Shown here in pieces: positions 5,838 to 57,163 of a stretch of 64,000 nt of DNA. The stretch's first letter is position 1. Each line of letters begins with the position of its first letter. Made by a program: the position numbers and the translations under genes. Below the pieces are notes generated by a model, which was not told the DNA's origin, searched no databases, and saw only the letters and a program-made list of their open reading frames with translations. Source of the DNA: Marsupella aquatica (Eukaryota > Plantae > Marchantiophyta); contig OZ316893.1 in assembly GCA_973895155.1 (NCBI GenBank), positions 16,646,645-16,710,644 on the forward strand. The letters are read 5' to 3'.

Positions 5838-8800
5838 TGTGGTGCGTCCCATGGCTCCCTAAACCCAAGAAACCCCCCAGCTCAAGCCGATTCCCGTAGG
5901 TTTCGTGCTTGGCGAGGCCGTTTCCGCGGCTTAGCGGCATGGGACGCTGCTAACCTTCTACTACTACTATTAACATTTTACACACATATACTGGACAGAT
6001 CCTTCATCGGGTCATGAGATACGTAGCCGGCCTAATATAGGCCTTCCCCTGTCTTCCCCTGTCTTCCCCTCCGTCTTGTTAGGTATGTTTGGATTCCGCC
6101 GCCGGAATGATCCCCAATAGGCTTGGTTAAGCCGCTAAGACCTCTCTCAGCTCGACACATCCAACTCTCACTCCCCTGCTTACTTTCCTTCCTTCTGTTG
6201 ATGTGGGCACTCTTCACACAAGTTAATGCGACACACAAATAGCAAAATGACTCATTCTGACTGAGTCATACCATGCACTTGCCATACAAACAGTACATCT
6301 CATACACAAGTTCTGCGAACTAAGCCGTGAGGCCAACTCTATTCAGCTCTTAGGCATGAGGAAACATGAATATACACAAGGGTCACTGTATGACTAACCG
6401 AGAGCTTCTCGTACTACTTGATCCCAGCCCGGCTGGTGCAAACTAAAAACTTGCTAAAGAAGAGGCCCTGAGCTCCCCGCTGCCCAGGTACTTATCCTGG
6501 TAGTGGATCCGCCATTCTTTGCATCGTAAGCCTAATCTACCTGACAGTAATCTACTTGCCCGAATCTACCTATGTACAGCAAGGCAGGAGCACAAGTGTT
6601 GCTCCTACCAGTGGGACCGCAATCCCACTAAGCTAAGTGTCAGGGCCGCTCCTGGTTCTGATCCTAATCCTAAACGTGGAGATCCGCGCCCGCCCTGCCC
6701 ACTCACGCCTCCTCCCTCCACGTCCGCCCTCCCTAAAAGGAACGGCGCCCTTGCACCGTCACGACACCGGTGGTGGATCCTCAATGGACGCCCCCAACAC
6801 TTCCTCCTCAACCATTGCCGTTGGCCCGCCTACTGACAGATTACCTGCCCTTGACCGAGTCAACTCTCCATCGGCCTGACTGGGTCCACCTTCGGCTTCA
6901 GCCTCGACACCGGCCTCGGCAATACCCACGGCTTCGGCTTCAGCCACTCCCTCGGCTTCGGCCTCCCCTTCCCCTAGGGTAGTTGGATCCTTAGCCGTGA
7001 CCCTGTCTGGGGTCGGTGCTGGGTCTACCTCCTTGATCACCACGGCCTGTGAAGTCGTATTACTCCTTGACCCTGAAGGTTTCCGCTTCTTCTTCGTTAG
7101 TGGCTCGGCAGCTGGTCCCTTCCCCTTCCCACTTACTTCCGGCACTGGTGCAGTTGACGCGGCTTGTCCTTCGGCAATTACCACCCCTGGTAACTGGTTT
7201 GTCCCAACGGGAGATGGACCTGCTGCAGCTAAGCATTTAAATACTGCGGCTTGTTTCTTCAGCCGCTCTGTTTGGTTGTCGGCCCGCCGCTGTAGGTTCT
7301 CCATCTTCCTCGTGATTTCCTCCAACTCCTCTTGGGTTTCATCCAGGTCCTTACGTGCCCCCTCCAGCTCGTTTTTGGCCTCCTCCTGCTCCCTGTGGGC
7401 TTCCTCCAATTCCTTCTTCAAGGTAGCCCTCTCCTCCTGGGTTGCTCTTAGCTCCTTGTCGAGCTCTGCAATGATGACAGACTCCATCTGGTTCATCTTG
7501 GCGTAAGTCTGTTCGAGTATCTCGTCCTTCTCCCTTAGGTCGGCCTTGAAGCTGGCCGTCAGGGACGCAAGCTCCTGCTGCAGCGCCATAATCCCTTGAT
7601 AGGATTTCCCTAACTCGACCTCCTGCTGCTCAAGGGCTCCGCGGATTTTCTCGAGCTCCCCTTTCAACGCCCATTCCTTTCTTTGGGTCTCCGCCATGGC
7701 CCGGCTGTTGGCTGTTATGTGGGCCTCCTCTGTATTCTTCAGCTCTTGCTTCCACTTCTCCCTCTCTTTGATCGTGTCGGCCAACTCTTCCTGCGTCTGA
7801 GTCAGTTTATCCTTGATATTTTGATTATCAGCCTGCGCGGTGTCCAACTGCCCCTGCATGATGTTCAGCTCATGTCGTTTAATCCGCAGTTCATCTTGGG
7901 CTTTCTTGGCCGCCCTTAGATCTTCAATCTCGGCTTCCATCCTCCTAAGCCGCCGAATGACCTCGTCCTTCTTGCTTCTCTCTAAAGCCACCGCTTCTTC
8001 TAATTGGTGCTTCTCCAACTGCTCCCTATGGAAAAAGGGTCCTACCTCCAACTCCTCTCCAAAGATGCCGAGCGCAAGTTCCCCACACATCTCACCATAC
8101 TCCATGGCTCTATTCTTAGCGTAGGTGGAGTAAGTAGAAGTGATCGGCATCGCCCATCGTGGCCTCTGCTCCCAAGCCGTCCTGCGGATCTCTTCAATCG
8201 TGGCTAGAGGTTTGCTTCCTTTTTCGGCTAGCCGCCTGATGTCCTCCGGCCAATCTCCTCCTGGTAAATCCTTTTCCTTAGCCAGGGCGGCCTCTTCCTC
8301 CTGCTTGATTCGCTCCTGAAATTCCTGCACCGTCTGTTTTATGCCGTCGAAGCTCGGGGGAGCAACATCTGGTGGGGAAGACTCAGGGCTACTCTGCTGG
8401 TTGGGGTCCCCTCGCACTACCCTTGGAAGTGTGGGGACAAACCGGCCACAGGTCCTTACTCCTGGAACGTGATGGTCCGACCCATAGCCGGAATTATCAT
8501 GGCTGCAGTCCTCCACTGCCTCCTCTACCTCTTGGACGTCCGGCTTCTCCCTCTCCTCTTCGTCGGTAGGAGCTTCAGGCAATTCTGCCTCAGATTCGGA
8601 GCTTGAGGTTCCCACGTACATTCGAACACCTGGATTCCGGCCTGATTCTCTCCTTGTCTCCAGCAAAGGGGTTTTCTCTTGTGAGCCGGTGTAGGCCTAC
8701 CTCTGTAGTAGTGTCCTGCATTGTTGCCGTTGCCGTTGTTGTTGCCGATGCCGATTTCTTTTCTTTCTCCAGTAGTTTCAACAGACTCTGCATGCCTGGT

Positions 8801-10464
8801 TGTTGCATCGGCAAGTCTTCCTTCCTGGGCCTAAACACCTGCTCGATCGTAGGACTAACAGGTGGTTGAGGCTTCTCAGCCAACGGCCTCGGCGTTGGAG
8901 CTTCCTCGGGTGCCCTTACCTGCAGGGGAAGTACCGGGGCAAAAGTCTGACCTCTGGCATACCGGCACAACAGCGGCATGTGATAGCCAAGCCGCGACAC
9001 TCTCCCCATGCCGATTACCTGCTGCTCCTCCTTTAAGATCTTCTTCAATTGGTTGAGGAGGTACCCGTTGTAGTCCCGGCTTGGGTCTGGCCTTTCTGCC
9101 AGATAGACCTGTGCCTTGCCGATCTCTGCCCTCGGCAAGTTACAATGCATGGTCACCCGCAAGAAGTCGATCATCTCTCCTATGTGCGGGTTGGTGCAGG
9201 TGTTCCGGAAGAAGCCATTCTTCGTTGATGGCCCGGGGAACGACCGGAACTCCTTGTCAGGCAAGGTCTTCCTGGTATCAACTTTGGTCTTATTGCCTAT
9301 CGGCAGGCCAAACACTTCGGCAATTACCTTGGGAGTAAGATAGAAATCCTTCCCATATATCCTCGTGCAATTGGTCTCGGGTTCCCATGACCCCACGAAT
9401 TCTAATAGGTCTGACTCCGATACCTCCGGCTTCAGCCATGGTAATCTTACAAAGGCCTCCAAGCCGGATCCGGCCATGAAGCCTTGGTACTTCTTGGTCT
9501 GCATGGCCGTAAAGCATGCATCCTCCTCCCGTGCAAAATGTAGTTGCACCTCCACCGGTAGGGTTGCCGCCCAGCCCTTCCAGGTGTCATCCCTGGTTGG
9601 AATGGCCTTGATGGGATCGACCTCCTCCTCTTCGGCTTCTCCCTGCCTCCTGCTCTGCTGCTCGGCTGGCCTCTTTGGTGCCGCCGACCTCGTTCTTTTT
9701 GCCGGGGTGGCTTCATCGTTGACGGCCCCCTTCCTCTTCATCTCTGCTGCCGTGGAGGTTTCTCCTAGCACCGTTGCCTGGGTCCACCTTTCCGTGCTAC
9801 CCTTTAATTCCCAGTGTATGTCGTTGCAGTTCTTGATGGCCTCTCGGATGCCGACGACGCTGTCTTTGCAAAACAGAAGATCGTCGAGTTGATTGGAAGT
9901 AGGCGTCCACAGGAACTCGTCCTTGATGAGTTCGCCTCCTAAGAAAGCCGTCTTCTGCAGCTCCCACAATTGAGCGAGCTCCTGCCGTTCTCGAGCTGCC
10001 CTTTCTGACTCCTCATCCTCGTAAGTCTTGATGTACTCAGTTGCCCGTTCGAACAGACATCCCCAGAAATGTGCCGCTTGATTGACGTTGCTCATACCCT
10101 CCTTAGGTCGATCGTCGGTATCTACTCTCTCCCCGAGTGCTTGCCTAAGCAACTAACAGTAGCCTCCCGTAGTCGTCTGCCTAGTTCGTGCTCGCAAATG
10201 AGCCACCATCTCCTGCAAGCGCTCCTTACCCCTCTCCTCTGCCGGTCCTTCTTCCCGTTGATCCTTCCTAGCCGCCGACGCTTAACGCGCCCTAACCCTA
10301 ATCGGGTTTTCACCCTTAGCCTTACCTCCGGCCTCGGCCCGGGTTCCATGGTTGCCCCTAATTGTTTATATTTTCCTTGTTTTGTCCCTATACTAAGGTG
10401 TTCCTAGGGTGCCTTCCTGCTTTACCCACTTAACCGGCCGAGTGATTCCTGTCTAGGTATCACA
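5838..10464 (-). mobile_element. Solo LTR of family A (4.6 kb, ORF-containing)
   Basis: TGTGGTGCG…TATCACA termini, TSD AGTTG (5833-5837 and 10465-10469). Near-identical to LTRs 30554-35228 and 41453-46103. Confidence 0.95.
6759..10349 (-). pseudogene. Frameshifted copy of the family A LTR-encoded protein
   Basis: ORFs 10122..10349, 8590..10152 and 6759..8666 are consecutive pieces of the intact 1215-aa ORF at 31466..35113, broken by small deletions. Confidence 0.9.
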
Positions 10465-10559
10465 AGTTGAAGCAAGGGCCTTTGCAAGGATTTCTCAACT
10501 AACTATGAAGAAACATGGTTCAGTGAGGAAATATGCAGACAAGTTACTTGATCTGGTGG

Positions 10560-11784
10560 AACATATCCGGTAACAGAACTGCAAGTCATCCAATCAGCAA
10601 GCAAGGCAAGTGGAAGAAGACTCAACCACCTGCCAAGATCCCCATCACAGGCCTTCGCCAATGCACTAATGATCTGAACATGACCTCGTTCAGATTTCCC
10701 ATTGCCTTCCGGATTGTAACTTGAGGTAAGCTTCAACTTGATTCGGTACTGGTTGAAAAACTCTTGAGCTTCCTTGGAGCTCAGCTCCCCCTATCAGCTC
10801 TCATCCTTGTAAAACACCCTTGTCTCGCAATGATATCTTCCAAAATAAACTGACAAACAACAGTAGTCGTATTGGTAACCAAAGCTCTCCCTTCAACGTA
10901 AGAAGACAAGTATCTCGCCCCATTGCTTTCCCTTGGCATGTACACCACATCAACTGCCCATTGAAAATGTAGTGCCATCGGGTAAGTCGAAACCAATCCA
11001 TCTCTATGTCGGATCCTCGAATAGAACTGGCAGACTTCACAAGTCTCCATGTAATCCCGAACGCTCAAGTACAAACCAGGCCACCAATAAAGGTTCCTGA
11101 TTCTATCATAAGTTGCTTGAACCCCTCTGTGTCCAGGAACTTCCACATCATGGCTCTCTTTGAGAATTCGGTCCTTCTCAGCCTTCATTCCCACAACCCT
11201 TTGAAGTAACAGTCCCGGTTCCTTCGATCTTTGCCACAGGTATCCCTCCTTCAACAGGAACTTGTAAGACCTCTTTTGAATTCTCACAAACTCCTTGTAA
11301 TCCCACTCTGGTTGCTTCTCCAGAGTACTGATATACCTTCCAACATCCAACAACTCCCCCGAATAGAGTTCCTCCTTAAACTCTAGCTTTCCGTCAGCTT
11401 CAGAACTGGCCGCCCTACTCACTCGAGCCTCGACCTCATTTCCGAACCTGGCTCTTGAGAGCATGTCAGCAACCGGGTTATCCTTCCCAGCAATATGGCT
11501 CAACTCAGGGTCAAACATCCGAATGAAAGCAATCCATCTAAGCATCGCTATATCCGGCGTATCGCAGTTTGCTATCATTTCCAGTAACGATTGACAATCG
11601 GTCTCAATCACCACTGGAGATCCAATCAGGTAATTCCTCTCTTGATGGAGTGTCACTTTGGCACCCCAAAGCTCCCGTTTCACTTGGGCATATCTCCTTT
11701 GTCTTTCCATAAAGATCTTTGCCCCAACTCTGATCGCATACCTTTTGCCTTTCTCATCGTCCTGTCCAATAGCCCATCCAGCCG
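10560..11784 (-). pseudogene. pol: Element Y RNase H C-terminal part and integrase (truncated)
   Basis: VIETDCQSL, HIAGKDNPVADMLSR, zinc finger H…GHRG…CEVCQ, core WAVDVV / ADRG / YNPEGNGKSER. Contains frameshifts. Confidence 0.85.
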
Positions 11785-12165
11785 TGTGATGCCTAGCCAG
11801 GAATCACTAGGCCAGTTAGGTGGGGAAAATGGAGGTGTACCCTATAAACACATTAGTATAGTAACAAAAACAAGGAAAATATAAACAATTAAGGGTGACT
11901 ATGGAACCCGGGCCGAGGCCGGAGGTAAGGACACCGGGGGAGAGAACACGATTAGGATTAGGGCGCGCTAAGCATCGGCGGATAGGGGTAACCAACGGGA
12001 GGAAAGACCAGAGGAGGAGAGGGGTAAGGACCGCTTGCGAGGAATGGTGGCTCATTTGCAAGCACAAACTGGGCAGACAACTACGGAAGGCCAACTACTA
12101 TCAGCTGCTTAGGCAAGCACTCGGGGCGGGAGCAGATACCAATGATCGAGTCAAGGAGGGTATGA

Positions 12166-12230
12166 CGGGCATCACCACCGAGACAGGAAATAGGAAAACA
12201 GAACTCCTGTTAACAGGAAAACAGGAACCT
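12166..12230 (+). repeat. Left TIR/subterminal ACAGGAAA repeats of the MULE
   Basis: cgggcatcaccaccgAGACAGGAAATAGGAAAACAG…ACAGGAAAACAGGAA. Confidence 0.8.
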
Positions 12231-12768
12231 GTACCATGAATGTTTTGAAGTTTTGAGCCCACATTTTAGCGAAAGGTAACACTTGATCGGGTTCCTTACA
12301 ACAACTAAATGCAGTCACTTCTCCACCAAATATACATAAACCATCGAGTGGGTCCAACCATACACTGGTTGCTGATACGAAACACACTTGAAATGTTACT
12401 TATCTTAAAAATATCATCGGAATCGGAACTGTATTCTATAATATCGCTAGGCGCTAACAAAAAACAAACCAAGATTTCTAGCCCATTTAAATAAACTTAT
12501 TGCAAAAATACCTACTAGTGTAAGAGTTTAGATGAGAAGAATTCCATTCCCAGAATGTTAAGAAACGGAAATTTTGGTTGCAAACACAAGTACTTTAAAG
12601 AATCCATCCGGCCCATGAAATGAAAGAGATTCACTCAGAACGGGACAAACTTATGCTAGCGCCGGGCGCTAGCCATATATATTAACCAAATATGATCGTT
12701 GAAAAGAAATGAAACGTTGCAATGCGACAAATGAGGTTGGAGCCGTTCAACGTTACTAAATCTCTAGT

Positions 12769-15700
12769 CTATAAGTTTAGAGAATTCTGCCTAGCTAGAA
12801 TGAGCCTCACCTCACCTACAGTCAAAATTGGCTGACTAGCCAAAGTTGAATCCACGACATCTAGTTTGAGGACGTTGGTATAAACCCAATATCGATGCTT
12901 GCAAGGCATGAAAGGCCGTCCATGAGAATGGCGACGATAGAAGTCCTCACAAGAACAGCAGGGGAAAATACAAATCTGCACCCAGTAAGTGTTTGCCATA
13001 CGAAGTTTCTCTTGGGTCTGGATCTGAAATTGTTTGCCCCAAGAGTTTCCGATTGAAACATCAAACTGTTGAATAAGTGTCATCAGCTCGTTGTTTGCAG
13101 ATTCAATTCTTTTGTTGTGTCCTTGTGAAAGATTTGAACGTGGGACTGTATTTTTACCATTCCTACTCCGAATGCGGATATTTGGCTCCAGGAGATTGAT
13201 TTTCTCAGGGAAAACATTCACATTGATTCGCAAGTCAAATGGAGATGGAGGAGCCTGACGTCCGGCCTCTGGATTGATCGCAATCCCTTGCTGAGATAGG
13301 AATTGGACCTCAGCTTCCGAAAGATTCGTGCCCTTTAAAACGGGCAGGGTATGAGGAAACGGGGAAAGATTCACCACATTACGACGGGGCCGACTCTTAT
13401 AGCATGCATTATTGGGATAGAACCAAATCATCTCAGGATGTGGTTCTCCCCTGAACATGCGGTGTCCTTTGACAACAATGCCAACTACACCATCCGTTGA
13501 CGGATAACCAACCTTTTTCAGATGATTTCGACAGTCATCTCGTTCCGATTTACCACCAAGAGATCCATTACATTGAGGCCCTGCACCATGTTTTGTCACT
13601 CTTTGTAGGTGCCAAGCACCTGGTCGCACGTCAGTCTCCAACACAGATGAGTCATGGACAACCCTTTGGAGGTTCGGAGGTGCACTTTGCGGTGCTACAG
13701 AAGACCTTGTCACCCTCCTCCACGGCGGAGTACTCCAATGACAGCCTTCTTTGATTTTGCTTTCCGAGAGATCCACAATGCCAATGTTATCGTGAACAGG
13801 TCCCTCTGCATTCGGGGAGAATTCGGTCTTGTTTAAGTTTTTCCTCTTCATACCTCGAGTATTTGGTGATGTTACAAGAATAGTGTCATGCCGATGGGAG
13901 TCTTGTGCCGAGATGTTCCCAGAGGCCTGACCTTTCCTCTTCATAGACTTTGTTGTAACATCCCCATTGAGTGGACCACTCCTTTCTAGGTCAAATTCAG
14001 CCGCACCGAAAAGAAGCATATTGGAAGCATCTTGGAAAAGTTTTGAAGAACCTGCCTGGTCCGCCGAACGGAATGCCAATTCCCAAATTGTAGGTCCGGT
14101 TCCTCGGTGAAGACCTCTCTTATACGCCGTATATGCTGCAACTTGTGAGACACCCCTGTTTTGGTCCATCTCACATTCTTCGAATAGGCCAGCCTTTTCC
14201 TTAGTTTGCCAAGCCTTCATTATGGAATGCGCCACCTCTGAAGTAGTACAGTTAGGAATCATAGCGCTTTCCTCCACGCTTTTGTTCTGCATCCACCATA
14301 GGAGCAGAGTTTAGGAAATATGACTTAGCCACATGTACATAAAATCAATGACAGCGCCTGGCGCTAGCAACATTCAAACTATATTTTTGCTAAATTTAAG
14401 AAACAAGTGGTCCATTAATACTAGCGCCGGGCGCTAGTATCAAAAACAAGATAATGATGAACAAAACCTACGAGACCACACTAACTGAAAATAATGGTAG
14501 CGCCAAGCGCTAGTATGAGTTTGAGTGGTTACTGGATGTTGAAACTCACCAAACGAATGAAATTTCCCCATTGACGCCATCGGACCACCCACCACGCCAA
14601 CCAACCTTGGAGCATTCGAAGCTTCCCTGGAACACAATTCCCAGATCTCCACCATACATCGATATCCCTTGAAATTCTGTACGCTCCAAGAAATGTGGAC
14701 GCGTTCCTTAAAGAGTCCTACATCTTTCGATGCTCATCTCGTTTTTCTTCCAATACACCTTCAATCGAGTGACGATGAAACGATTGATAGAAGTGAAACG
14801 CATCCGATCGCTCCTTTTCTGGGTTAGGATGTCCTCCGAAAAATACATTCCGAACAGCATTCCATCCAGCTTGGGCATTGTCAGCCATGAATCCATGGAT
14901 CACAACATTATCCAACCCATTTTCATGGCAAACCTCAATCATCAATTTCCAGGCTTTCTCTAGAGACTCTGAATCTTCTGCTTTCAACTCACATGTGAAA
15001 ATTGTGCAAAGAGCACGATAATTGTGATCATAAACATGTGCGCTAAAAGTTATCCAATCTTTTGTCATCCTCCTCATCACATCAAAACTGACCCATGCCC
15101 CTTCCAATGGACCTCCAGGCTGCATTTGGCGCAACAAATCAACTCCAGATCCGTGCCCTTTTACAGTCATTTTGAAAATATGTGGCCTATCCTCTTTATA
15201 GCCTTGACTTGGGAGCATGTAACATTGTAGAAAGGGAAAGATTATGCATTTATGCATTTCAACAAGAAACTCCAACTCACCTTTGCCTTTTTGGTCTTGC
15301 CGAACGCTTCGAAAAAGAGATGCAAACTTTTGAGGGGTCGAAACTACCATTAACGACTCCCAAATTTCTCTTTCCTCCAATTCACCAATGTCATTGTTGG
15401 ACACACAAAGAGCCTTCCTTAAAGATCCAATTATAGTGTTCTTCAGACCCGATGGTGTGGCACACGGCGTAGCTTCATGTTGTTTCTTTATGAAGTTGTG
15501 AGCAATCTTTTCAGCACCACGAGAAAAAACTTTTCGACTGGGATGAGCATGAGTTCCGACATGCACAGCAAGACGGGACATATGCTTACAAGTATCCGCG
15601 TCTAGAAGTAGTTGAGGGTACATATAAAAAAGCATTGCAGGACATGCTTCAGTACAAAAGGGTAATCGTTGGCAATAGTGACAAACTACGCCACCCTCGT

Positions 15701-16568
15701 CAATCATCTTTCCTACGGTATGTGGCCCCGCGAGTTTGGGTGTGCCATTCCAAGCTTTACAATTTCTTCATTTCTTCCGCAAAAGATAATCACACTTCTG
15801 ATTCTGACATTCTAGTGCTCCTGTACACGTCACTTTACCAAATTCCCAGAACTTTTTCGGTTGTACATTCGTAGAGGTTGGAAATATTCGTGTCCAGAAG
15901 TAGCAGTCTTTCGGCCGATCCATGTCACAGAGTCTTGAACCTTTTGAAAGAAGACCTTCTGCGGGAGGCAATTCAAATACAACGTTTCCATTGTATTTGC
16001 TTGGCAGGCAATTCACCTGCTCATGCCTGAAATCACATGTTCGGATGAATCGCGATAGTTCACTATGGCCAGTTGATTTGAGAATAGCATCCATCGCACT
16101 TCGACGATAGACAATACCTCCCGCAACACCCCCCACAACGTGTGTCTCCGCAACACCCCTCGCAACGTGTGTCTCGGAAGGAAACTGACCTTCCATCTTG
16201 ACCGAAGTTCCCGGATTGGGCGATTTTTGCGAATGAACGGCAACATCCTCCTCATCACTATCGGAAAGGTGAATGACGGGAACCAGATGAATTTCATTCG
16301 TAACGGAATTATCTCGAAGATTGATATAGTATCTCTTCCCAGCGTTCAGTTGCCAAAATCTGACTCCATCGTCGATATCAAACAATGCGTCACCAGCCTC
16401 GTCTCCAAAAGCATCAACAGGTTTGATGGAAAGAATGTCATTGATGCCAATGTCAAATCTTCCACAAAGATAGTTCTCACTAACCTGTTTGTACGTATCG
16501 GAAGAACCTAAAGGAATGCGTACAATCTCTCCAGTTCCAGAACGCAGAAGCACAACTGAATTAGACAT
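12769..16568 (-). pseudogene. MULE-type DDE transposase with Cys/His (GCM/WRKY-like) region and C-terminal SWIM finger; 2 exons, 2 premature stops
   Basis: Exon 16568-14550 reads through TGA at 15768 and TAG at 14718 in frame. GT-AG intron 14549-14287, then exon 14286-12769. Motifs: CxxC…C…HVGTHAHP, VSFDV, FMADNAQAGWNAVRNVF, SDAFHF, CTTSEVAHS, SWIM CSCEDF…PCKHRYWV. Confidence 0.85.
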
Positions 16569-17465
16569 TGAGGAACAATAATCCCGAATTGACAAACAGA
16601 GAAAATGAGAGAATAGGAGAACATAACCCGACTTAAGTTAAGTGAATTCGTAACAAACTCCAGAAGATTATCGTTTGTGAACGACAAAACGGGTACTAGT
16701 CGTAAAATGTAGAAACATAAATGTCATTTGTCGTTTTGCCAACGTCACTACGTACTGGTAACATCAATAATATAGTTTGAGAAACACGATCAGATATTTA
16801 CTAGCGCCCGGCGCTACCATAAATATGTCACGGAATTAAAACCTAAAACCAAACTTCATATGCTAGCGCCAGGCGCTATCATTAATCCACTTCCAATTAA
16901 TGGAGAAAAACTCTATTAATTTTATTGGAATAACAGAAATGTCAAAATACATTGAGTTTGTTTTATACAATTGTTGTTTGTAGGAAATATACACGTATAA
17001 AATATAGTTAGCGTCGGGCGCTGACATAATTTCATGGCTAACATCAGTGTTAATGATGTTATTCTGGTGGTTTTTGAATGCTAGCGCCTGGCGCTAGTAT
17101 CGAAAGGAATGACTTGTATTATCCCAACGGTTATATCTAACGGTAAAGTGCATGAACATACTCATTGTTTTGCACTTTTTGCAGTTGACTTCCTTAACAA
17201 TAGCCTACGGATCATCGCTCCTGCCTTACCCCACTTAAAAAGAGGTGTTACATATACTCATTCTAAACAGTATCGGCCACTTGTCCTTGTCATGATTGGT
17301 GAGTGAGATCCTTTTCTTCCGCATCGATCTACCTCTCATGATGTCAACCGCCCAAGTTTTAAAGGTTTCCTGGTTGTTCTTTTTGTACGGTAATCTATTC
17401 AGAGTGTGAGAATAGACACTGGCTCTGTGTCGTACAAGCACCTTCGCAAACTTTGGGGCTCCACG

Positions 17466-20400
17466 ATGCAACCTTCAAGCGCTCCAAGCTCTCCAAGAGG
17501 GTATACCACGGTTCCGGAGGGAGATCAGGGTCATTGCGAGAGTACACAATCTTCATTCTCTGGGGCATTCTATTCGCGTCGTGTTACAAGATCGAGCGGA
17601 GCGATTCCTTCATCGAACACAACACTCCCGAGCCAGAAGCCAAGAAGGGGCAGAATGGAGACTAATGGCATGACCGATTACGCTTTGGGAGAGGGCAACG
17701 AGGTAGGACTTGGAATGGATGAAGTCATCTCCAAACACATTATGTCGTTTGGGAAAGATTTCCGGGGTAATGAGAAGGAACCTCCACGGATTCCGCTTTG
17801 TCGCCTGGTCCACATGGAGGTTGTTCGGACATTACAGAAGGAGAGTGCGTCAATTGAGAAATTGAAAGACTCATTCCGAAGTAGTGGATACAATCCCAGG
17901 ATAGGAATGCGGTTTTTTGTACAACCGACCGATTCGGATGGTGTGGAGCAAATCTGCACTGAAGAGATCAGGGAGAGTTGGGATCCAATTTGGGTTGCTG
18001 AAAACGAGAAGTTTGAGCTGGAGTGCGAGGCAGATCCTGCCTTTATGATCTTGAAAGACAAAATGTTCTCAGTGTTCGACGGGAATCATCGACTTTACTC
18101 GTGGACGATGGTCACTAAGGAAAATCCTGACAACGTCAAGTATCATCCCAGAGTTCTCTGCACAATTTTCAAGGGTGACAAAGCTTCACAAATTCAGATT
18201 GAGGCGGCTATGCACACTGTGAACCAGTACGTTTTTTGCCCTAGCTTGTAATTAACGATTTCCGCAATACTTGTTGATTACACAAATATAGTGTTTATGG
18301 AGTGTTTATAAAATAATACAGTGTTTATAGGCTAATTGAGTGTTTAAGTTAAGCTAGCGCCCGACGCTAATAATTGAAAACCTGACCTATTGCAGGTTAG
18401 GGCAGGCCGTTGTTGAACCGTCATGGATCCTTGACGTAGACAGAATCCGGAGGATTCTTTCTCACGATCTAGAGCACTACAAGTCTATCATTGACAGCGC
18501 CAATTATGCAAAGTTTGAGTATATCAAACAGAAGACTCGAAAACATTCTTGGTACACAAGAAAAATGCCTCTGGAAGCTCTAGTCTATATTTTATGTGAA
18601 AACAAAATCAAAGCTTACACTAACCAGTTCAAGATGGACATGGCACTGGCAGCAAGTCAAGGCAATCCTTGGTCGGCTGATGACATCACAAAGCGGCAAT
18701 CGCTCATGTTGAAAGAATCTACTAAAGATTGGTCCACAAAAACGTCCAAAATCACTCCTCTTCTTAGTCCTGAGTTTGAAGATTTTCTAGGTACCTGTGC
18801 AGAGATGTATGTTTTGACAGAGAAAAACAAGCGAGAGAAAAAACCAGATTCGGTTGTTTGCACTATGGACCGTGCCAGACTCTTCACTGCAGTTTCGGCG
18901 CTTGATCCAAAATTGAGGTGTACATTGCTCGTTGCTCACTGTACTCCAGAGTTGAGAAAACAATTCTTCCACCCTTCGAGTGTGAACGATGATCCAGTGA
19001 AGCAGTGGTGCCACACATGGCAAACATGGAATACCGTCGAGGGAATTGCAATTGGGATGCTACACTCAGCAATTTCCGTAGCGATTGAAATGCTACCGGT
19101 TGATAGGCTTGCCCAGTCAGGGTGTGACTCGGTAGAAAATCTGATTGAAGTAATTTCAAGTGAATTCCGAAGGTATGGGGATCTTGTGAAGGCAAAGTTC
19201 TTCAACACCATGTGGCCATCAAAATACCCTGATAAAGAGGTATATACCGAGAAAAATCAGAAGAGGGCCAAGAGGTATTTGTATCGTTTCTACATTTGGA
19301 TGGAAATTCATTCCCCGGATGCTCTTTGGTTGTATCCAGCCGCATTTCACAAGTGGATTACTGTAAAGGAGGGAGATCTTGTTTGTGACTTATACTCGAT
19401 GTATCCTGCCAAGGGTAAACTACCCCCAAGGGAAATGTCCGATTGGGAAAGAATTCACTGCCCATGGTACCTTGACACAGACAAGTGGGATTCACCCTTT
19501 GATGAAGTGGAGAAGGATTCGTTTCTGAAACTTGCAAAGTCGTAGATCCTTCCCAACATTGTTTCTGAGATGAAGCAAGGTCTCCTTAGCGACGTCGATA
19601 AATCTTCTACAGAGTTACAGACAATCTGTGAGACAGTAGTTGTCCATGTAGATTGGAGCCGCAAGCCACGAGGGAAAGTTAAAATAGACACTACAGTGCC
19701 AAGTGCCTCCACGCGATCCGGAAAGAAACGTAAGTTTTCAATCTTTTATCAAATGTTTGCTAGCGCCCGGCGCTGCCATTCTTGTGATTCAATCTTCATC
19801 AGTGTTTGCTTGAAGGCCCTAATCCCACATTCTTTGCAATATGTCCATAGGTCAAAAGAAGTTAGATGCAGATGGCACAGATGATACGAAGGTTACTCCA
19901 GAAGCTTCAGAAGCAAATACTGGCGCTTTGCCAGATCCACTTACACCAGTTAATTCTGGGAAATTGATTGTCCCAGTCGATGCGACGAGTACAAAAAAGA
20001 AAAGCAGAAGGACTCGAGATGCTGGACAATCAGAACGGGATTCTCAAGCTGCCACTGGGCTCCAACGTGATGTTGGGGATTTTAAAGCCAAGTCGTCTCG
20101 TCATTGTTTCGTTGAGACCAGTGTCAGTGAACTTGTGGACAGTGTGTTTAATAAGGAGGAGAAGCCGGAATGGGTAAATGATGCCGAAAAGTGGGGGAAA
20201 GACCTGATCAAATCTGGATGCCGGCTGAAAGGAGTGGTGAGGGGTGGGAAGCAAAGACCTTTTGGTGTTGACGCTAGTTTTTTTTACTTGCCAACTGGAC
20301 TAAAACCGACTTTGCTTGACAGAAAGGTCCCTAAATGGAACGTCCCCGACTGTACCCTAGCCCGATCCTTTTTCCGGGCAATGGATCCTTTTTTGTCGGA

Positions 20401-20949
20401 TGACGGAATTATTGCGATACTCCATACGGGGGAGTATGATCAAATTTCGCAGGTCATCTCCGCTTATCAAGAGTCCAAGAAATTCCAGTGTCTATGTACA
20501 CATAATGTCGTCATGGGGTTCCCAATGTACAAAGCGAAGTCTGATTTACAGGTAATTTTATTGATCCTTTTGCTAGCGCCCGACGCTATTCATATTATCT
20601 ATTACTCATTTTTTCGTTTTTTAAAATATTCTTGGTGTTGACATAAAACCCTAAACTTCTCGTCCTCAGGTCAGACTGGAATCTTTGCCGGCGTTTCAAA
20701 CTCAGAAGGAAAGTAGCTAGGCGATATATTAAAACTCCCGAGAAACCATTTGTACTACCTTCCTATGCTGAGAATATTGCTAGACGAGCTGATAGTGTGC
20801 GGACCCTCCATTGGGAGCATAAAGGTTTGAGATTAAGGAGAGGGTCTGATAGAAAATTTATTCGTAGTCGATATGTTGATGATATGGCCGAGAACGAATT
20901 TTTAGACATGGAGGCAGAATCCACCGACAGGTCCGAGTCAAGTGAATAA
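17466..20949 (+). pseudogene. Spliced accessory gene: ParB/Srx-like N-terminal domain, unknown helical region and degenerate amino-methyltransferase-like segment
   Basis: In-frame GT-AG introns 18227-18395 and 19730-19850 join ORFs 17406, 18565, 19570 and 19841. A third intron is at 20552-~20669, and the last exon appears frameshifted. One in-frame TAG at 19543. Motifs IPLCRL…VRTL…IEKLKDSF…FSVFDGNHRLYSW and VDASFFYLPTG…PKWN…FLSDDGIIAILH. Confidence 0.7.
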
Positions 20950-21993
20950 GAATTCTCAGATTGATTTCCCTCGGACGGGTATTTTGGGATTTATATACAC
21001 TGAAGTTATACTAGCGCCGGGCGCTACTGTTATGTAACCTAGAAACATTGTTTATTCAAATGTATTCGATACATTGGATACTTTTTTGGTGTATCTTTAT
21101 TCTATTATGTTCTCTATATTCGAATGTTTTTATGGTAGCGCCTGGTGCTACCATAATTTAATGTCCATGATCATATACCCGCATATTTTTCAATTTGGTT
21201 TTGTCCATTTTCAGGGTAGGTTTACTTCCTAAGACTGGACATTCCGATTGGTCGGAAACAATTGACCTGCAACTCCGTTTATTTTGTGTCTATTTCTCAA
21301 TTGAATTATGCTAGCGCCTGGCGCTAGCAAAACATATTTCGGAAACATTGTCCGTTAAGTGTTTTCCACATGTCAGAGACAACTGTTTTGTTTGTTCCTT
21401 CTGTTATTAACGTAAACATTTTAATACTCTAATATTAGCATCGGGCGCTACTATAACTGTATGACGGTCAAGGCTATCTTACAATGATTCTCCCGTACGC
21501 TCTGGATGACGTCATTGGAAGTTTCAAGGTAATCTTTTGTCCCGTTCTAAGTTCGTTCGGCCTGTCGCGACTCGCATGTGAGTTGATACCGGATTTTTCT
21601 CATACAAACGGTCACTTCACGTCACAACGGGACTTTGCATGCCAGAAACATTTTGGGATTCCAATAATGGTTTTGGTCGACTGTTTCTGAATGGAGACGA
21701 TGGTAAACGTCGCAACTATCATGTGAGATGGGAGTGATCGTTCCATGTTGAACGGGTAGTTTGGGGACTTTGAGGGTGCAACGTCCAACCCCTCCCTCAT
21801 TTCGATGGGCGTATCCAGGTCGAACGGGTTTGCTTATAATACTTGGGAGATTAAATCCCGACTGCCTAGTTTCGCTACTGCTTTAGTGGTTTCTGTTCCC
21901 ACTTTTGATAATCTTGGAGCTCTTTCGCTGACCGGGGTCGTATTGACAACTATATCTTTGAATCTGCCATCCGCTGCCTAGAGGTGTCTTACC

Positions 21994-22470
21994 ATGAATA
22001 ACCCGAGGAGAATCTCCATGGCCTCTTTTCAGAGACACACAACAATCATTTCAGAGGAGGGCTCGGTTCCAGAAACTGAGCAACCTGAATGGTCGGAGAC
22101 AACTGCTTTCCGCAACCGTTTTAGTCTCCCCCAAGACGAAGCCATTAGTCCTGGTGACAATCTGATCCCATGGCTGAGGGATTCTCCGCCTAGGATATTT
22201 GCAGAGCGGTTTACAATTCACTGGCCACCTCCTCCTTACAGTCCAACTCGGGAGGATGAGATGAGGAAACAGGAAGAACTTGGTCGTGTTGATTTCCAGA
22301 ACACGACCATTCCTGGCATGTTTCCCCGAACTGGTGATGAGCGAGTTTCGTCGATGGCGTTCGTGAGGAATTGTGAGCTCAGTTTTGTTCCAGATAGAGC
22401 CCGATCTAATGCTGGAGTGAACGATGAATGTGGCTCATCGACCAATGAGCGGACTAGCGCCCGGCGCTAG
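21994..22470 (+). CDS. Possible third MULE gene or exon (158 aa, Pro/Glu-rich), unknown function
   Basis: ATG-started ORF inside the MULE. Its stop codon is supplied by a palindrome copy. No recognisable motif. Confidence 0.3.
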   Translation: MNNPRRISMASFQRHTTIISEEGSVPETEQPEWSETTAFRNRFSLPQDEAISPGDNLIPWLRDSPPRIFAERFTIHWPPPPYSPTREDEMRKQEELGRVDFQNTTIPGMFPRTGDERVSSMAFVRNCELSFVPDRARSNAGVNDECGSSTNERTSARR

Positions 22471-23214
22471 CGTTGGTCGATAAGACTATGGTGCCCATTG
22501 CTCTCAAGTTTTTCCAAATGTGATGAAGACTTCGTCGGGACTCGACCGGAATTTAGAAATCTTGTCGTTAGATGTAGCCATTTTGGTTATCGATTGTGTG
22601 GAGTTCGGTGAAGTGCCTAGCACTAGTTTACTGTTCGGCCATTTTAAGCGAGAGGCGTCGGATGCGCATAGCTTTTTGAAACTTTCATACCTTCTGTTTA
22701 CGGTGTGGTTATGCGGATCACTTTTATCTTTTGTAAGCGCCTGGCGCTACCATCTTACTTAAAAAAATTGTATCGCAAGACTTTGTGGCTTTGGGGTGGC
22801 ATTCAATTATGCGAATTGGTTGGAGTCTGTTCTTTTGGATGTATAACCCTAAATGTCGGTCCGATGGTCCCTGTGGTTTTGTCGTATTTATCACGTCGGC
22901 CTCCGTCTAATTGAGCAATATAACTAGCGCCCGGCGCTAGTATCTGCACCGGTCCGACGGATGTGTCAGAGTTTCTTGTTTAGAGCTCCATTATGTACAA
23001 TTACAATGGCAGCGCCTAGTGCATTAATGTGCTTTTCAGTATAACCTAGGTTCAAATGTACCGTTCCCCTCGGCTTAGTATTCTAGCCCCTGTTGCTATT
23101 CTACATCATTTTTTTTTGGACTTGACTATAGTCTTCTAAAAGCCCCATTTTAGGGGTCAAGTTCTTGCTTAACAACAGACAAGTTTCCGGTATTTTTCTT
23201 TTAAGTTTGGTGTG

Positions 23215-23293
23215 TTCGGTTTCCTATTTCTTGTCATCGGTTCCTGTTTTGGGTTTCCTGTTTTCCTGTTTCCTGTCTTATGTAAATACCCCG
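23215..23293 (-). repeat. Right TIR/subterminal ACAGGAAA repeats of the MULE
   Basis: The reverse complement reads cggggtatttacataAGACAGGAAACAGGAAAACAGGAAACC…. Confidence 0.8.
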
Positions 23294-23295
23294 GT

Positions 23296-26200
23296 ATGAG
23301 CAATGTCAATCAAGCGGCACATTTTTGGGGATGCCTGTTCGAACGGGCAACTGAGTACATTAAGACTTACGAGGACAAAGAATCAGAGAGAGCAGCTCGA
23401 GAACGGTAGGAGCTCGCTCAACTGTGGGAGCTGCAAAAGTCTGCCTTCTTAGGAGGAGAACTCATCAAGGCCGAGTTCTTGTGGACTCCTACTGCCAATC
23501 AGCTCGATGACCTTCTGTTTTGTGAAGACAGAATCGTCGGCATTCGGGAAGCCATCAACCGCTGCAACGACGCGCATTGGGAGTTGAAGGGTAGCACGGA
23601 GGGGTGGACAAAGGCAACTGTGCTAGGAGAAACATCCACGGCAACCGAGATGAAGAGGAAAGGAAACATCAACGAAGAGGCCACCCCGGCAAAAAGAACG
23701 AGGTTGGCGGCACCAAGGAAGCCAGCAGAGCAGCAGAACAGGAGGCAAGGAGAAGCCGAAGAGGAGGAGGTCGATCCCATCAATGCCATTCCAACAAAGG
23801 ATGACACCTGGAAAGGCTGGGCGGCGACCCTACCAGAGGAAGTGCAATTACATTTTGCACGGGAGGAGGATGCATGCTTTACGGCCATGCAGACCAAGAA
23901 GTACCAGGGCTTCATGGCCGGATCCGGCTTGGAAGCCTTCGTAAGATTACCATGGCTAAAGCCAGAGGTGCTGGACTCAGACTTATTAGAATTCGTGGGA
24001 TCATGGGAACCCGAGACCAATTCCACGAGGGTGTATGGGAAGGATTTCTATCTCACTCCTCAAGTGATTGCCAAGGTGTTTGGCTTGCCGATGGGTAATA
24101 AGACCAAGGTTGATACCAGGAAGACCTTACCTGACAAGGAGTTCCGGTCGTTTCCAGGACCATCAACCAAGAATGCCTTCTTCCGGAACACCTGCACCAA
24201 CCCGCACATCGGAGAGATGATCGATTTCTTGTGGGTGACCATGCATTGTAACTTGCCGAGGGCAGAGATCGGCAAGGCTCAGGTCTACCTGGCAGAAAGG
24301 CCAGACCCAAGCCGGGATTACAACGGGTACCTCCTCAACCAACTGAAGAAGATCTTGAAGGAGGAACAATAGGTGATCGGCGTGGGAAGCGTGTCCCGGC
24401 TTGGCTATCACATGTCATTGTTGTGCCGGTATGCCAGAAGTCAAATCTTTGCCCCAGTACTTCCCCTATCGGCAAGGGCACCGGAGGAGGTTCCGGAGCA
24501 GAGGCCGGCAACAGAAGAGCCCAACCAGCCTGCCAATCCTACGATCGAGCAGGTGTTTTGGCAAAGGAAAGATGACTTGCCGATGCAGCAATCAGGCATG
24601 CAGAATCTGCTGAAATTGCTGGAGAAGGAGAGAATAGCACCAGCAACGCAACGGCAACGGTACCGGTACAGGACACTGCCCCAGAGGCCGGCCTAAGCCG
24701 ACTCAGGAGGGAAAACCCCTTTACCGGAGCCAACGAGAGAAGGAGGCCGGAACACAAGTCGGGAGTTCAAATGTATGTGGGAGCCTCAAGCCCCGAATCG
24801 GAGGCAGAGCAGCCTAAGGCTCCTTCCCGTGGAAAGTAGAGGGAGAGGACAGCCTGGAAACCAGAGGAGGAACAAGAGCCCGTGATCTGTGAGGCCGTTT
24901 TCACGGCAGGACCAGGGGAACAGAGGGGGAAGCCGGAAGTCCAAGAAGTGGAGGAGGAGGTGGAGGACTACAGCAATGATAACTCCGGCTATGGGTCGGA
25001 TCATCATGTTCCAGGAGTAAGGACCTGTGGCCGATTTATCCCTACGCTTCCAAGAGTAGTTCGAGGGGACCCCACCCAGCAGAGTAGCCCCGAGTCTCCC
25101 CCACCAGAGGTTGCTCCCCCGAGCTTTGACGGCATAAAGTAGACGGCACAAGAATTTCAGGAGCGACTTAGGGAGGAAGAGAAAGCAGCCCTGGCTAGGG
25201 AGAAAGATTTACCAGGAGGAGATTGGCCAGAGGACATCAGGCGGCTTGCCGAAAAAAGAAGCAACCCTCTTGCCACCGTAGAAGAAATCCGCAAGGCGGC
25301 TTGGGAACAGAGGCCGAGGTTGTTGATGCCGATGACTTCTACTTACTCCACCTATGCTAAAGATAGAGCCATGGAGTACGGGGAGATGTGTGGGGACCTG
25401 GCGCTCAGCATCTTTGGGGAGGAGTTGGAGCAGGGGCCTTTTCTCCAGAGGGAGATGTTGGAGAAGCACCGATTAGAAGAAGCGGTGGCTTTGGAGAGAA
25501 GCAAGAAGGACGAGGTCATCCGGTGGCTTAGGGAGCTGGAAACCGAGGTGGAAGACCTGCAGGCGGCTAAGAAAGCCCAAGATGAGCTACGGATTAAGCG
25601 GCATGAGCTAAACATCATGCAAGGACAATTGGATGCCGCTCAGTCTGGCAATCAGATTATCAAGGATAAACTGACTCGGACCCAAGGAGAGTTGGCCAGC
25701 GCGGTCAAGGACAGGGAAAAGTGGAAGCAGGAGCTGAGGGACGCAGAGGAGGCCCACATAACCGCCAACAACCGGGCCATGGCGGAGACTAAGAGAAAGG
25801 AGAGGGCGTTGAAAGGAGAGCTCGAGGATATCCGCGGAGCCCTTGAGCAGAAGGAGGCCGAGTTAGGGAAATCCTATCAAGGGATTATTACGCTGCAGCA
25901 GGAGCTTGCATCCCTGACGGCCAGCTTCAAGGCCGACTTGCGTGAGAAGGACGACCAGCTTGACCAGACTTATGCCAAGATGAATAAGATGGAGTCTGAG
26001 GTTGTAGCGGAGCTCGACAAGGAGTTAAGAGCAATCCAAGAGGAGAGGGCTACCTTAAAATTGGAATTGGAAGAAGCCAGAAAGGAGCTGCAGGAGGGAC
26101 GGAAGGACCTGGAGGAAGCCCAGGAGGAGTTGGAGGAAACCACCAGGAAGATGGAGAACTTACAGCGGCGGGCCGACAACCAAACGGAGCGGCTGAAGAA

Positions 26201-26744
26201 ACAGGCCGCAGTATTTAAGTGCTTAGCTTCATCTGGTCCAACTCCAATTCTGGGAACTCCGTTACCAGGAGGGGTACTGGCCGAAAGACAAGCCGAGACA
26301 CACGCCCCGGTGCCGGAGGTAGGTAGCAAGGGGAAGGGACCAGCTACCGAAATAGGGAAGAAGAAGAAGCGAAAACCTTCTGGGTCTGGGAGTTATACGG
26401 CTTACCAAGCCGTTGTGACCCAGGAAGTCAACCCGGCACCAACCTCCGGCATGATTACGGCAGTAGATCCACCTGTTGAAGAAGGTGGGGATGGCAAGGC
26501 CGAGGCCGGGACAACTATTGATGAAGCCGAGGTACCGGATCCTCCACTAGAACATGTCGGGGAGGCTGAAGCCATATCGAAGGCCGTGACCGATGCTGGA
26601 GCCGAAGCCGAGGGTGGACCCAGTCAAGCCGATGAAGAGTTGACTCGGTCCGGGGCAGGTAATCTATCAGAGGACGGACCGACGGCAGTGGCTGCGGGGG
26701 AAGCATTGGGGGCGTCCATTGAGGATCCACCACCGGTGTCATGA
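23296..26744 (+). pseudogene. Degenerate family A LTR-encoded protein (N-terminal piece at 11895-12165)
   Basis: ORFs 23479..24372, 24373..24696, 24882..25142 and 25320..26744 align to the 1215-aa protein. Several CAG>TAG stops and a frameshift. Confidence 0.9.
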
Positions 26745-27646
26745 TGGTGCAGGGGCGCCGTTCCTTTTAGGAAGGGCGGACGTGGAGGTAGGAGGTGTGA
26801 GTGGGCAGGGCGGGCTCAGATCTCCAAGTTTAGGATTAGGATCAAGACCAGGAGACGGCCCTGACACTTAGATTAGTGGGATGTTGGATCCACTGGTAGG
26901 AGCAACACTTGTGCTCCTGCCTCGCTATACAATTAGGTAGATTACAGGTAGGATAGATTAAGCTTACGCAGCAAAGTTCTGGACAGATCCGCTGCCAAGA
27001 TAAATACCTGGGCAGCGGGGAGTCAAGGGCCTCTTCTTTAGCAAGTTTTTAGTTGCACCAGCAGGGCTGGGATCAAGTAGTAAGAGAAGCTCTCAGTTAG
27101 TTATACAGTGACCCTTGTGTATATTCATGTTTCCTCATGCCTAAGAACTGAATAGAGTTGGCCTCGCGGCTTAGTTCGCAGAGCTTGTGTATGAGATGTA
27201 CTGTTTGTATGGCAAGTGCATGGTATAACTCAGTTAGAAGGAGTCATTTTGCTATTTGTGTGTCGCATTAACTTGTGTGAAGAGTGCCCACATCAATGAA
27301 GGGAAGTAGCAAGGGAGTGAGAGTTGGATGTGTGGAGCTGAGAGAGGTCTTAGCGGCTTAACCAAGCCAATTGGGGATCATTCCAGCGGCGGAATCCAAA
27401 CATACCTAATGGAAGACCAGGAGAGGAATACAAGGGAAGGCCTAGAATAGGCCGGCTAAGTATCTCATGACCCGATGAAGGATCTATCCAGTATATGTGT
27501 GTAAAATGTTAATAGTAGTAGAAGGAGAGTTAGCAGCGTCCCATGCCGCTAAGCCGCGGAAACGGCCTCGCCGAGGATGAAACCTGCAGGAATCGGCTTG
27601 AGCAAGGGGGTTTTCTTGGGTTTGGGGAGCCATGGGACGCACCACA

Positions 27647-28813
27647 AGCCGCGAATGGGCTCGCATCAACGGTAACTACCAGCGGTCTCCCACACTCATA
27701 ATCCGCAGGTCAAAGCACCGGAGGGCTCATGAGAGCACTCTTCAACCTCGACATTGCCTCACTGTGCTCAGGTAACCATCGCCACTTAACTCATTTTCTT
27801 TGCAACTCATAGAGCGGATCCGCAAGGTGCGAGAAATGAGGAATCTAGATCTTGTAAAACACACAAGCACCCAGAAACCTTGAAACCTCCGGCACCGACT
27901 CGCAATCCTTCATCTTACTTATAGCCATCACCTTATCCATGTTTGGCTTCCGGCCATAAGCTCCGCATATCTGACCAACAACCTTCACCTCTCTCATTCC
28001 AAACTCGGACTTCTCCCCCGAAAGAGTAAGTCCAACCTCAATGAGCTTCCCAAGAATGGCCTTGACATCAATAATGTGTTCCCAAACAAACTTCCGGATC
28101 CCATCACTCCTCAAGGTCTCATCCTTAGCCTCATCCAAGCATCCCTTAATCGGAACATCATCAATAAACGGTCTCGCCTTTTCTGGAATGAACGGTTCCA
28201 GAACTTTACTCATCACATTCTGCATATGCGCCACTGAGTTAGTCGCCCCTTGCGGAAGAGTTGACATCCGCAAGAGGCCCAAAGGAGTCCTCATAGTTGT
28301 TATGTCCCAACTTTCTTGCGATAATTGGAACTGATCATAGCCCAAAAACAAATCACCCATTGAGTAGATTGCCCTTCCGGCAAACTCCTTGGCAAATTCA
28401 TCCACGAGTGGTCCTACTCCCATGTTCCTGATTGTCACTTTGTTCGGCGGCTGCATGTCTTGAATGAACCTCAAACTCCCATTCTTTTTCCGAACCGTAA
28501 ACCATCTGTTCGAATATGGAGCATCCGATCTCTCAAGAATCCCAGCACTTAGGTTTTCCTTCAATAGTTCCGCCAGCTTTGGAGCCAAAGCCTGCAGAAC
28601 AGCAATCGGCTTCAGATCCCATGGAACATGCGGGACAGTGAAGATGACCATCGGTGTCACCTTACTTGGATCCACACAACCAATCTCATCAATCAAAAAT
28701 GAGAAAGCTTTGCCATGCTCCATAATCATCCTTCGAAATGCTTCCTGTTCCAACTTAGTAAGCAGCCCATCAGAACCAATTCTGAGCCTTGCTAGACTCT
28801 CCTGGGTAAACAC
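27647..28813 (-). pseudogene. pol: Element Y reverse transcriptase and start of RNase H
   Basis: APYSNRWFTVRKKNGSLRFIQD, DLFLGYDQF, LPQGATNSVA, PFIDDVPIKG, followed by VVTVDASP. Confidence 0.9.
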
Positions 28814-35113: not shown

Positions 35114-35216
35114 GGTTGCCCCTAATTGTTTATATTTTCCTTGTTTTGTCCCTATACTAAGGTGTTCCTAGGGTGCCTTCCTGCTTTACCCACTTAACCG
35201 GCCGAGTGATTCCTGT

Positions 35217-46103: not shown

Positions 46104-46212
46104 CCTCTCCACTTCCTCTCTTACCAGCTCGCCTCTCGGCCAATGCCTTCATCCCTCCCTTGTGTGAATTGAAGGGAATCGGTTCTTCATTGTCCGAAAA
46201 TGATATCTTCTT

Positions 46213-47049: not shown

Positions 47050-47056
47050 AACCTCT

Positions 47057-54356: not shown

Positions 54357-54404
54357 GTTGAGTTCCTCTTCCTCCGAGGTCTCCGAATCATATTCCTCAG
54401 GTCC

Positions 54405-57151: not shown

Positions 57152-57163
57152 AAACAAAGGCTA

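Follow-up and report, generated by a model that had tools for sequence, protein, structure and literature searches.

A land-plant DNA transposon carrying a putative ParB-like accessory gene and dispersed, family-private palindromes

Why does a plant transposon carry one palindrome many times along its length, and which protein reads it? This question is raised by a large DNA transposon in a 64,000-nucleotide stretch of the Marsupella aquatica genome (GCA_973895155.1, contig OZ316893.1, positions 16,646,645 to 16,710,644 of the forward strand; hereafter the window). The element carries a transposase gene and, divergent from it, an accessory gene with an FDGNHR motif. The initial annotation proposed that the accessory gene encodes a ParB-like protein that recognizes the palindromes. 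Based on the palindrome array, its counterparts in related families, and structure predictions, we consider it very likely that some protein encoded by the element binds the palindromes, and probable that this protein is the accessory one. Coordinates of all features are collected in Table 1.

The palindrome, TAGCGCCNGGCGCTA, occurs as nine exact copies in the window, with a chance mean of 0.00 in shuffled sequence. Allowing up to two mismatches gives 19 sites (shuffled mean 0.09, maximum 2 in 100 shuffles), all of which fall between 12442 and 22939 and hence within the element at 12166-23293. The remaining 53 kb of the window contain no site at that threshold and two at three mismatches. The initial annotation had counted about 20 palindromes and no exact consensus copy elsewhere, and both counts hold up. 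The center base is unconstrained (C 6, G 5, T 5, A 3 over the 19 sites), both CG dinucleotides are intact in 18 of the 19, and 8 of the 13 deviations are C-to-T or G-to-A changes. Identity among the sites is 0.73 in the core and 0.32 in the A+T-rich flanks, which argues that the palindromes are kept as islands and are not leftovers of tandem duplication. All 19 fall outside the exons of both genes, and those exons account for 60% of the element's length (p about 3e-8). Each of the four introns contains at least one site, and spacing between sites ranges from 0.1 to 2.3 kb. Within 20540-21470, none of the best 40 of 102 differences in other copies hits the five palindromes, which occupy 8% of that stretch, giving weak support to conservation of the palindromes across copies.

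Related families carry arrays of their own. A metagenome scan returned 167 relatives, of which 80 loci were kept and grouped into 40 clusters at 85% identity; the window palindrome occurs at none of the 80. Upstream DNA was then scanned with a fixed, untrained procedure in the 28 clusters with at least 1.5 kb available (12 of the 40 were dropped as too short). In 18 of the 28, the 2 kb preceding the ParB-like exon contain a palindrome family private to the cluster, with at least three sites. Such an array occurs in 2 of 44 far windows on the same contigs (Fisher p 4e-8), in none of 280 shuffles, and in none of 25 segments taken from elsewhere in the window. Examples include GAGGTGCC-N6-GGCACCTC with 17 sites (L006), TTCGGCGCCGAA with 7 (L014), GGCCGTTAACGGCC with 10 (L077), CAACTTT-N8-AAAGTTG with 14 (L039), and CATATG-N8-CATATG with 10 (L025); these motif models were trained on the same loci, and 14 models were built, some of them overlapping. 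The arrays are concentrated 0.3-2.5 kb ahead of the ParB-like exon, a region that separates the two genes at loci showing both, and at 9 of the 17 loci examined the same motif returns downstream of the exon amid unrelated flanks. At 7 of the 80 loci, the ParB-like gene is preceded by a related transposase encoded on the other strand, which is the arrangement of the window element; many of the other loci are too short or too decayed to show one. No terminal repeats were found in the long related loci. On the ParB-domain tree, motif class over the 20 labeled loci requires 12 changes, the minimum possible (shuffled mean 15.4; 0 of 5000 shuffles). Motif type thus follows the protein tree, as judged from these sequences, which indicates vertical turnover of the sites with the element. 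The check suggested in the initial annotation, whether related families carry different palindromes, thus had a positive outcome.

Several family palindromes (L014, the L039 clade, L038/L058, and L023/L030) also seem to have a GGCGCC/CGGCGCCG core in common at their center, decaying through C-to-T changes, and the window half-site likewise contains GGCGC. Arrays of AT-rich 25-bp and TACC-type tandem units (L019, L056, L061, and L066) were dismissed as ordinary satellites. In three families (L019:4840-6130, L056, and L066), a long array of the AT-rich 25-bp kind adjoins the ParB-like gene.

The accessory gene is spliced, with GT-AG introns, and divergent from the transposase, just as it was first annotated; its splicing is backed by many homologs that stop at the same intron position. 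The front domain, modeled with AlphaFold2 from 101 rows at a predicted local distance difference test score (pLDDT) of 96, is predicted to have the ParB/sulfiredoxin (Srx) fold that had been proposed for it. A structure comparison against 48,161 chains gave 12 at Z of at least 2, with KorB best (Z 6.9, root-mean-square deviation [rmsd] 3.0, 94 aligned). Eleven of these 12 chains are ones we take to belong to the ParB/Srx superfamily. The top Foldseek rows are sulfiredoxin, ParB-CDP (probability 0.99, E 0.07), Noc, and PadC, and the scores are modest throughout (Z 6.9, E 0.06-0.07). Across the 101 rows, conservation is high at R40 (80/91), G125 (93/99), N126 (98/99), H127 (93/99), R128 (84/98), and N172 (70/83), and G60 is also conserved. 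The GxxR nucleotide-binding motif, formed by G125 and R128, is thus among the conserved parts. By motif order only, the series R40, G60, DGNHR, and N172 appears to match the CTP (cytidine triphosphate)-binding residues R60, G79, R104, and N136 of Caulobacter ParB (PMC8367383).

The sequence of this domain is distant from known families. Pfam, NCBIfam, and PHROGs gave no match above cut-off, with weak sub-threshold hints to DndB (3 of 101 members), DGQHR (E 0.06), and a ParB-like PHROG (E 0.11), and VANC-type Pfam families did not match the accessory protein. A sequence search of solved structures returned only a galectin, rejected as a chance match, and a word-index search with the ParB exon returned nothing. 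At E ≤ 0.001, the exon-1 domain has 242 relatives among 50%-identity representatives, 150 of them among the matches listed; 2 of 32 checked are unrelated repeat proteins. Relatives with names belong to Riccia sorocarpa and to two species of the fern Adiantum (7 of the 10 looked up), and in another set all 31 of 31 are from R. sorocarpa, whose proteins are also the closest named neighbors in the tree (support 96/87). By sequence likeness, the ParB-like accessory class occurs in liverworts and ferns. No donor lineage was found in viral contigs, which held neither relatives of the domain nor a paired palindrome, or in 301 Pseudomonadota-group genomes, where the domain had no match. By language-model features, 17736-18224 resembles a fungal cluster at a score of 0.93. 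In that cluster, 31% of members have DUF3723, which is conserved as a cargo gene in Starship transposons and may be another ParB-like transposon passenger.

Beyond the front domain, the protein continues into a helical middle region and a methyltransferase-like half-domain, the latter overlooked in the initial annotation. In the full-length relative P0186 (1,104 residues, mean pLDDT 68.8), the C-terminus is predicted to fold like beta-class N6A/N4C methyltransferases (E 2e-8; Z 15.9, rmsd 3.3, 198 aligned) and has the beta-class motif order, IV before I; full-length Riccia relatives end in this fold. The best PF01555 match to the region has an E of 9e-6, below the cut-off. The catalytic motif (D/N/S)PP(Y/F/W) is present in 0 of 24 rows among the matches listed, which mostly read D-[LMIVF]-P-[TSFI]. 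In the window family, YLPT stands where active enzymes have DPPY/SPPY, placing a Tyr at the Asp position, and only the first, motif-IV half is kept. The S-adenosylmethionine (SAM)-binding half is missing: the last exon or tail does not match that half of the Riccia relatives, and pieces of other copies cross the site with no insertion seen. Phage and plasmid searches gave only weak matches, to stand-alone methyltransferases. For the middle region, atlas search scores were under 0.9, and alignment to 31 ParB proteins with hhalign gave no signal, in a comparison where the N-terminal positive control failed too. An open reading frame (ORF) in the tail (20695-20900) is weakly like the C-terminal tails of annotated Riccia proteins (E 0.056-0.14) and, if the obvious splice sites are used, does not share the reading frame of exon 3.

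The transposase gene is split into two exons totaling about 1,180 codons, and the protein has five relatives at 50-55% identity. Six rows share the invariant D229 and D296, 67 residues apart, and D322xxH325, with CxxH in distant relatives; a C/DxxH motif is common to MuDR, hAT, P, Kolobok, IS256, and Dada (PMC3706591). Exon 2 adds a SWIM-like motif, which the Pfam SWIM profile matches at E 0.56. In the spaced Asp pair, the C/DxxH, and the SWIM-like motif, the protein is like both MuDR/Mutator-like element (MULE) and Dada transposases. Profile comparison gave no match to MULE (including Pfam MULE) or to Dada, and the one IS256-type protein compared did not match. At the single insertion examined, the target duplication measures 6 bp (GTATGA) or 7 bp (GGTATGA), whereas MULEs duplicate 8-10 bp (PMC5225508). 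This length fits Dada, but Dada elements lack terminal inverted repeats and insert into small-RNA genes, whereas this element has short imperfect inverted ends and sits in a retrotransposon reading frame. Of the initial description as a MULE bounded by target-site duplications, the duplication stands, and the MULE label is a matter of resemblance; the transposase is best described as MULE-like and unclassified. A 27-bp tandem duplication at 16121-16174 in the transposase exon seems to vary in unit number among copies.

Both sides of the insertion align to three uninterrupted retrotransposon paralogs in the window. The empty site and the duplication length are known because these intact paralogs align across the insertion, and the borders drawn initially are confirmed by them. 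The inverted-repeat ends align with a score of 49 (shuffled mean 22.9, maximum 40 in 200 shuffles). They contain CAGGAA repeats, which are non-palindromic and distinct from the palindrome; 7 of the 10 occurrences in the element lie within 60 bp of an end, and these repeats are likely the transposase sites. The element is multi-copy, with contigs of four sequencing runs spanning all 30 bins and copies 85-99% alike. Premature stops interrupt the accessory gene once (19543) and the transposase twice (15768 and 14718); other copies among the matches listed have C at 19543 and 14719, so that two of the three stops are absent from them. The element is thus a decayed copy of a multi-copy cut-and-paste DNA transposon within a retrotransposon. 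It has only two supported genes, and none of its longer ORFs scanned belongs to an ATPase family that could be a ParA. One contig of run X3 links the left end (12175) to the intergenic region (16787) on opposite strands, and perhaps represents a non-autonomous derivative.

What, then, are the palindromes for? The accessory protein could bind them as a KorB-like regulator or scaffold that tunes or represses the divergent promoter, or that bridges sites, compacts the element, and joins its ends for the transposase. KorB is the top structural match (Z 6.9 and 7.5), the arrays of relatives cluster between the genes upstream of the ParB-like exon, the element ends are short and imperfect, and in the MURA-MURB interaction there is an earlier case of an accessory protein assisting transposition (PMC12973397). 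However, the Z gaps among KorB, Srx, and PadC are under 1 and amount to ties, and the sites in the window element span its whole length and every intron, as VANC motifs do; we consider this role unlikely. It is also rather improbable that the palindromes are bound by the transposase, serving its synapsis or the activation of its own element, and that the ParB-like protein does something else. The motif-tree fit cannot single out the binder because the transposase and accessory gene are co-inherited, each with the motif, and in AtMu1 the transposase, with no accessory gene, both binds copies of its family and activates them (bioRxiv 10.64898/2026.08.24.746577). AtMu1 binding is at the termini, though, whereas the nearest palindromes here lie 276 and 354 bp inside the ends, which carry the asymmetric CAGGAA repeats instead.

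A passive or RNA-level origin, as RNA hairpins, splicing signals, host-factor sites, or by-products of tandem duplication, would fit the presence of at least one site per intron and the partly tandem upstream arrays of some relatives (flank identity 0.50 in L006 and 0.62 in L057). Yet intergenic and terminal DNA hold sites too, a one-base loop makes a poor hairpin, the flanks in the window family are unrelated, and the sequence differs from family to family, a pattern not expected of host-factor sites. This origin is very unlikely. More improbable still is that the accessory protein is an active methyltransferase placing N4-methylcytosine (4mC) or N6-methyladenine on or near the palindromes. 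The full beta-class fold of the relatives would suit such an activity, which has been proposed for an Ectocarpus Sola protein (PMC12477816), and liverworts have active 4mC enzymes with TSPPY (bioRxiv 10.1101/2021.02.12.428880). Against it stand the lack of DPPY/SPPY at motif IV in all 24 rows among the matches listed and, in the window family, the Tyr at the Asp position and the missing SAM-binding half, with no insertion at that point in other copies. The CpG ratio, at 0.85 in the element, 0.62-0.69 in the adjacent retrotransposons, and 0.86 in 46200-64000, does not discriminate among any of these possibilities.

The reading we favor, with a probability of roughly 0.48, is that the accessory protein has a VANC-like role in anti-silencing or activation. 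Recognition of a site with two-fold symmetry by a homodimer is established for ParB/parS. By analogy, the accessory protein would dimerize on the palindrome of its own family, with the helical middle region reading the sequence, and the conserved R, G, DGNHR, and N may form a nucleotide pocket that allows clamp-like loading and spreading between sites. The methyltransferase-like part would be a non-catalytic remnant, and the transposase would use the separate CAGGAA end repeats. Coating of the element would keep it expressed against host silencing, as VANC proteins do; the motifs of these proteins are likewise located in non-coding DNA, introns included, and vary from family to family (PMC5735166). 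In its most specific form, in which seed-free land plants host an unclassified lineage of large transposons with a MULE-like catalytic core and a 6-7 bp duplication, whose nucleotide-gated ParB-type sliding clamp on family-private palindromes coats the element and excludes silencing, the proposal is tentative and on balance doubtful.

Several observations weigh against an anti-silencing clamp. The predicted fold has modest scores, with no Foldseek match at E ≤ 0.001 and Z under 8. Residues Q58, E102, and E135, linked to CTP hydrolysis in Caulobacter ParB (PMC8367383), have no evident counterpart in the accessory domain, where the E position is N. Structure comparison assigned no helix-turn-helix or other fold to the middle region of P0186 (residues 264-570). 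The CpG ratio of the element equals that of 46200-64000 and hence is no proof of protection. The motif-tree fit shows no more than that kin share motifs, and 10 of the 28 families have no upstream array, most of these being low in CpG and full of stops. The AtMu1 precedent described above belongs here as well.

Table 1 Features of the transposon in the window
Feature	Position	Strand	Remarks
Left target-site duplication GGTATGA	12159..12165	+	or GTATGA 12160-12165
Whole DNA transposon, 11,128 bp	12166..23293	.	Empty sites in three paralogs; right end 23292 if duplication is 7 bp
Left end, short imperfect inverted repeat	12166..12240	+	3 CAGGAA units
Palindromes near left end (2)	12442..12671	.	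at 12442, 12657
Transposase exon 2	12769..14286	-	SWIM-like CxC..CxH motif
Transposase intron	14287..14549	-	Holds 3 palindromes
Transposase-intron palindromes (3)	within 14287..14549		at 14352, 14422, 14498
Transposase exon 1	14550..16568	-	Cys/His cluster, two invariant Asp, DxxH; premature stops 15768-15770, 14718-14720
Divergent intergenic region with 4 palindromes	16569..17465	.	at 16802, 16864, 17009, 17082
Accessory exon 1	17466..18226	+	Start codon assumed; low-complexity N-terminus, then predicted ParB/Srx-fold domain
Predicted ParB/Srx-fold domain	17709-18226	+	VR, GY, DGNHR, terminal N
Accessory intron 1	18227..18395	+	
Palindrome of accessory intron 1	18355		
Accessory exon 2	18396..19729	+	Helical middle region; premature stop 19543-19545
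Accessory intron 2	19730..19850	+	
Palindrome of accessory intron 2	19761		
Accessory exon 3	19851..20551	+	Linker, then motif-IV half of beta-class amino-methyltransferase-like domain, YLPT
Accessory intron 3	20552..20669	+	
Palindrome of accessory intron 3	20574		
Last exon or tail	20670..20949	+	Reading frame uncertain
Palindromes 3' of accessory gene (4)	21012..21450	.	at 21012, 21136, 21312, 21436
Palindromes toward right end (3)	22455..22939	.	at 22455, 22735, 22925
Right end, inverted orientation	23220..23293	-	4 CAGGAA units
Right target-site duplication	23293..23299	+	or 23294-23299

A 162-residue ORF at 21982-22470 has no family support; the palindrome at 22455 overlaps its last codons and provides the stop codon. 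Elsewhere in the window, one Ty3/gypsy-like retrotransposon family is present as four nested copies, with 5823-12165 plus 23293-27648, 30540-35241, and 41453-46114 among the listed spans. Three of the copies are 97-99% alike, and the interrupted one is 83-86% alike. A direct repeat of 1.08 kb (47057-48132 and 57164-58237, 95.6% alike) is possibly a long terminal repeat pair.

The module had initially been thought undescribed, a claim that falls with recent reports of like modules in algae (Petroll et al., bioRxiv 10.1101/2025.02.11.637652; PMC12477816). The kind is therefore already in print, with self-binding as a proposal. A literature search, with most subscription journals outside its coverage, found no description of the module in land plants, and the accessory-gene list of a Bostrychia preprint may bear on this point. 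VANDAL/VANC is the sole proven case of a transposon protein marking its own element, and the algal ParB-like class is a proposal. With many families, each with short and well-defined palindromes, the question of self-recognition is directly testable. If the clamp mechanism is true, a bacterial-type DNA clamp would be working on eukaryotic chromatin and would provide new orthogonal protein-site pairs. A ParB-type sliding clamp would mean that ParB/parS is at work in the nucleus of a plant, where upwards of a dozen such pairs of different specificity would form a natural library.

In bacterial ParB/parS and KorB, the N-terminal fold, the order of nucleotide-binding residues, and the palindromic sites of 15-24 bp are like those of the window module (PMC8367383). 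Unlike these systems, the element has no ParA partner, and structure comparison recognized no helix-turn-helix; the domain has DGNHR for GERR and a large insertion, and is followed by the extra helical and methyltransferase-like regions. Arabidopsis VANDAL elements resemble the MULE-like window element in their Mutator-type character, in encoding an accessory protein, and in having family-specific motifs in non-coding DNA, introns included, but the VANC motifs are 8-9 bp and non-palindromic, all point the same way within an array, and have spread through tandem repeats (PMC5735166). ParB-linked methyltransferases are described from phage loci and chlorophytes (PMC4738411). In the brown alga Ectocarpus, Sola1-1_Ec32 has a ParB plus N4C/N6A methyltransferase accessory gene opposite its transposase, suggested to be a possible new protein class (PMC12477816). 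The window gene has the same two-domain plan and the same placement on the strand opposite the transposase. For green algae, that study cites Iyer et al. 2011. Sola1-1_Ec32 differs in its Sola transposase and its brown-algal host, and the passage describing it does not mention palindromes, while the window family has lost the catalytic motif and is truncated.

Another close plan, on description, is that of PAG3, a ParB-like accessory gene of red-algal Plavaka (EnSpm) elements with adjacent tandem inverted-repeat arrays, for which self-binding is put forward as a proposal (Petroll et al., bioRxiv 10.1101/2025.02.11.637652). Both proteins pair an N-terminal ParB-like domain with a C-terminal domain of a DNA-modifying type, and both elements carry inverted-repeat arrays. 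PAG3 has a 2-oxoglutarate-oxygenase domain, its arrays are tandem and adjacent, and it occurs on another transposase type in red algae, whereas the window family has a degenerate amino-methyltransferase and palindromes dispersed over the whole element and each intron, in land plants. To the algal systems, the present analysis adds seed-free land plants as hosts, a MULE-like transposase with a short target duplication, a methyltransferase part that is halved or has lost its catalytic motif, sites in every intron, and a controlled demonstration of private palindrome arrays in 18 of 28 related families.

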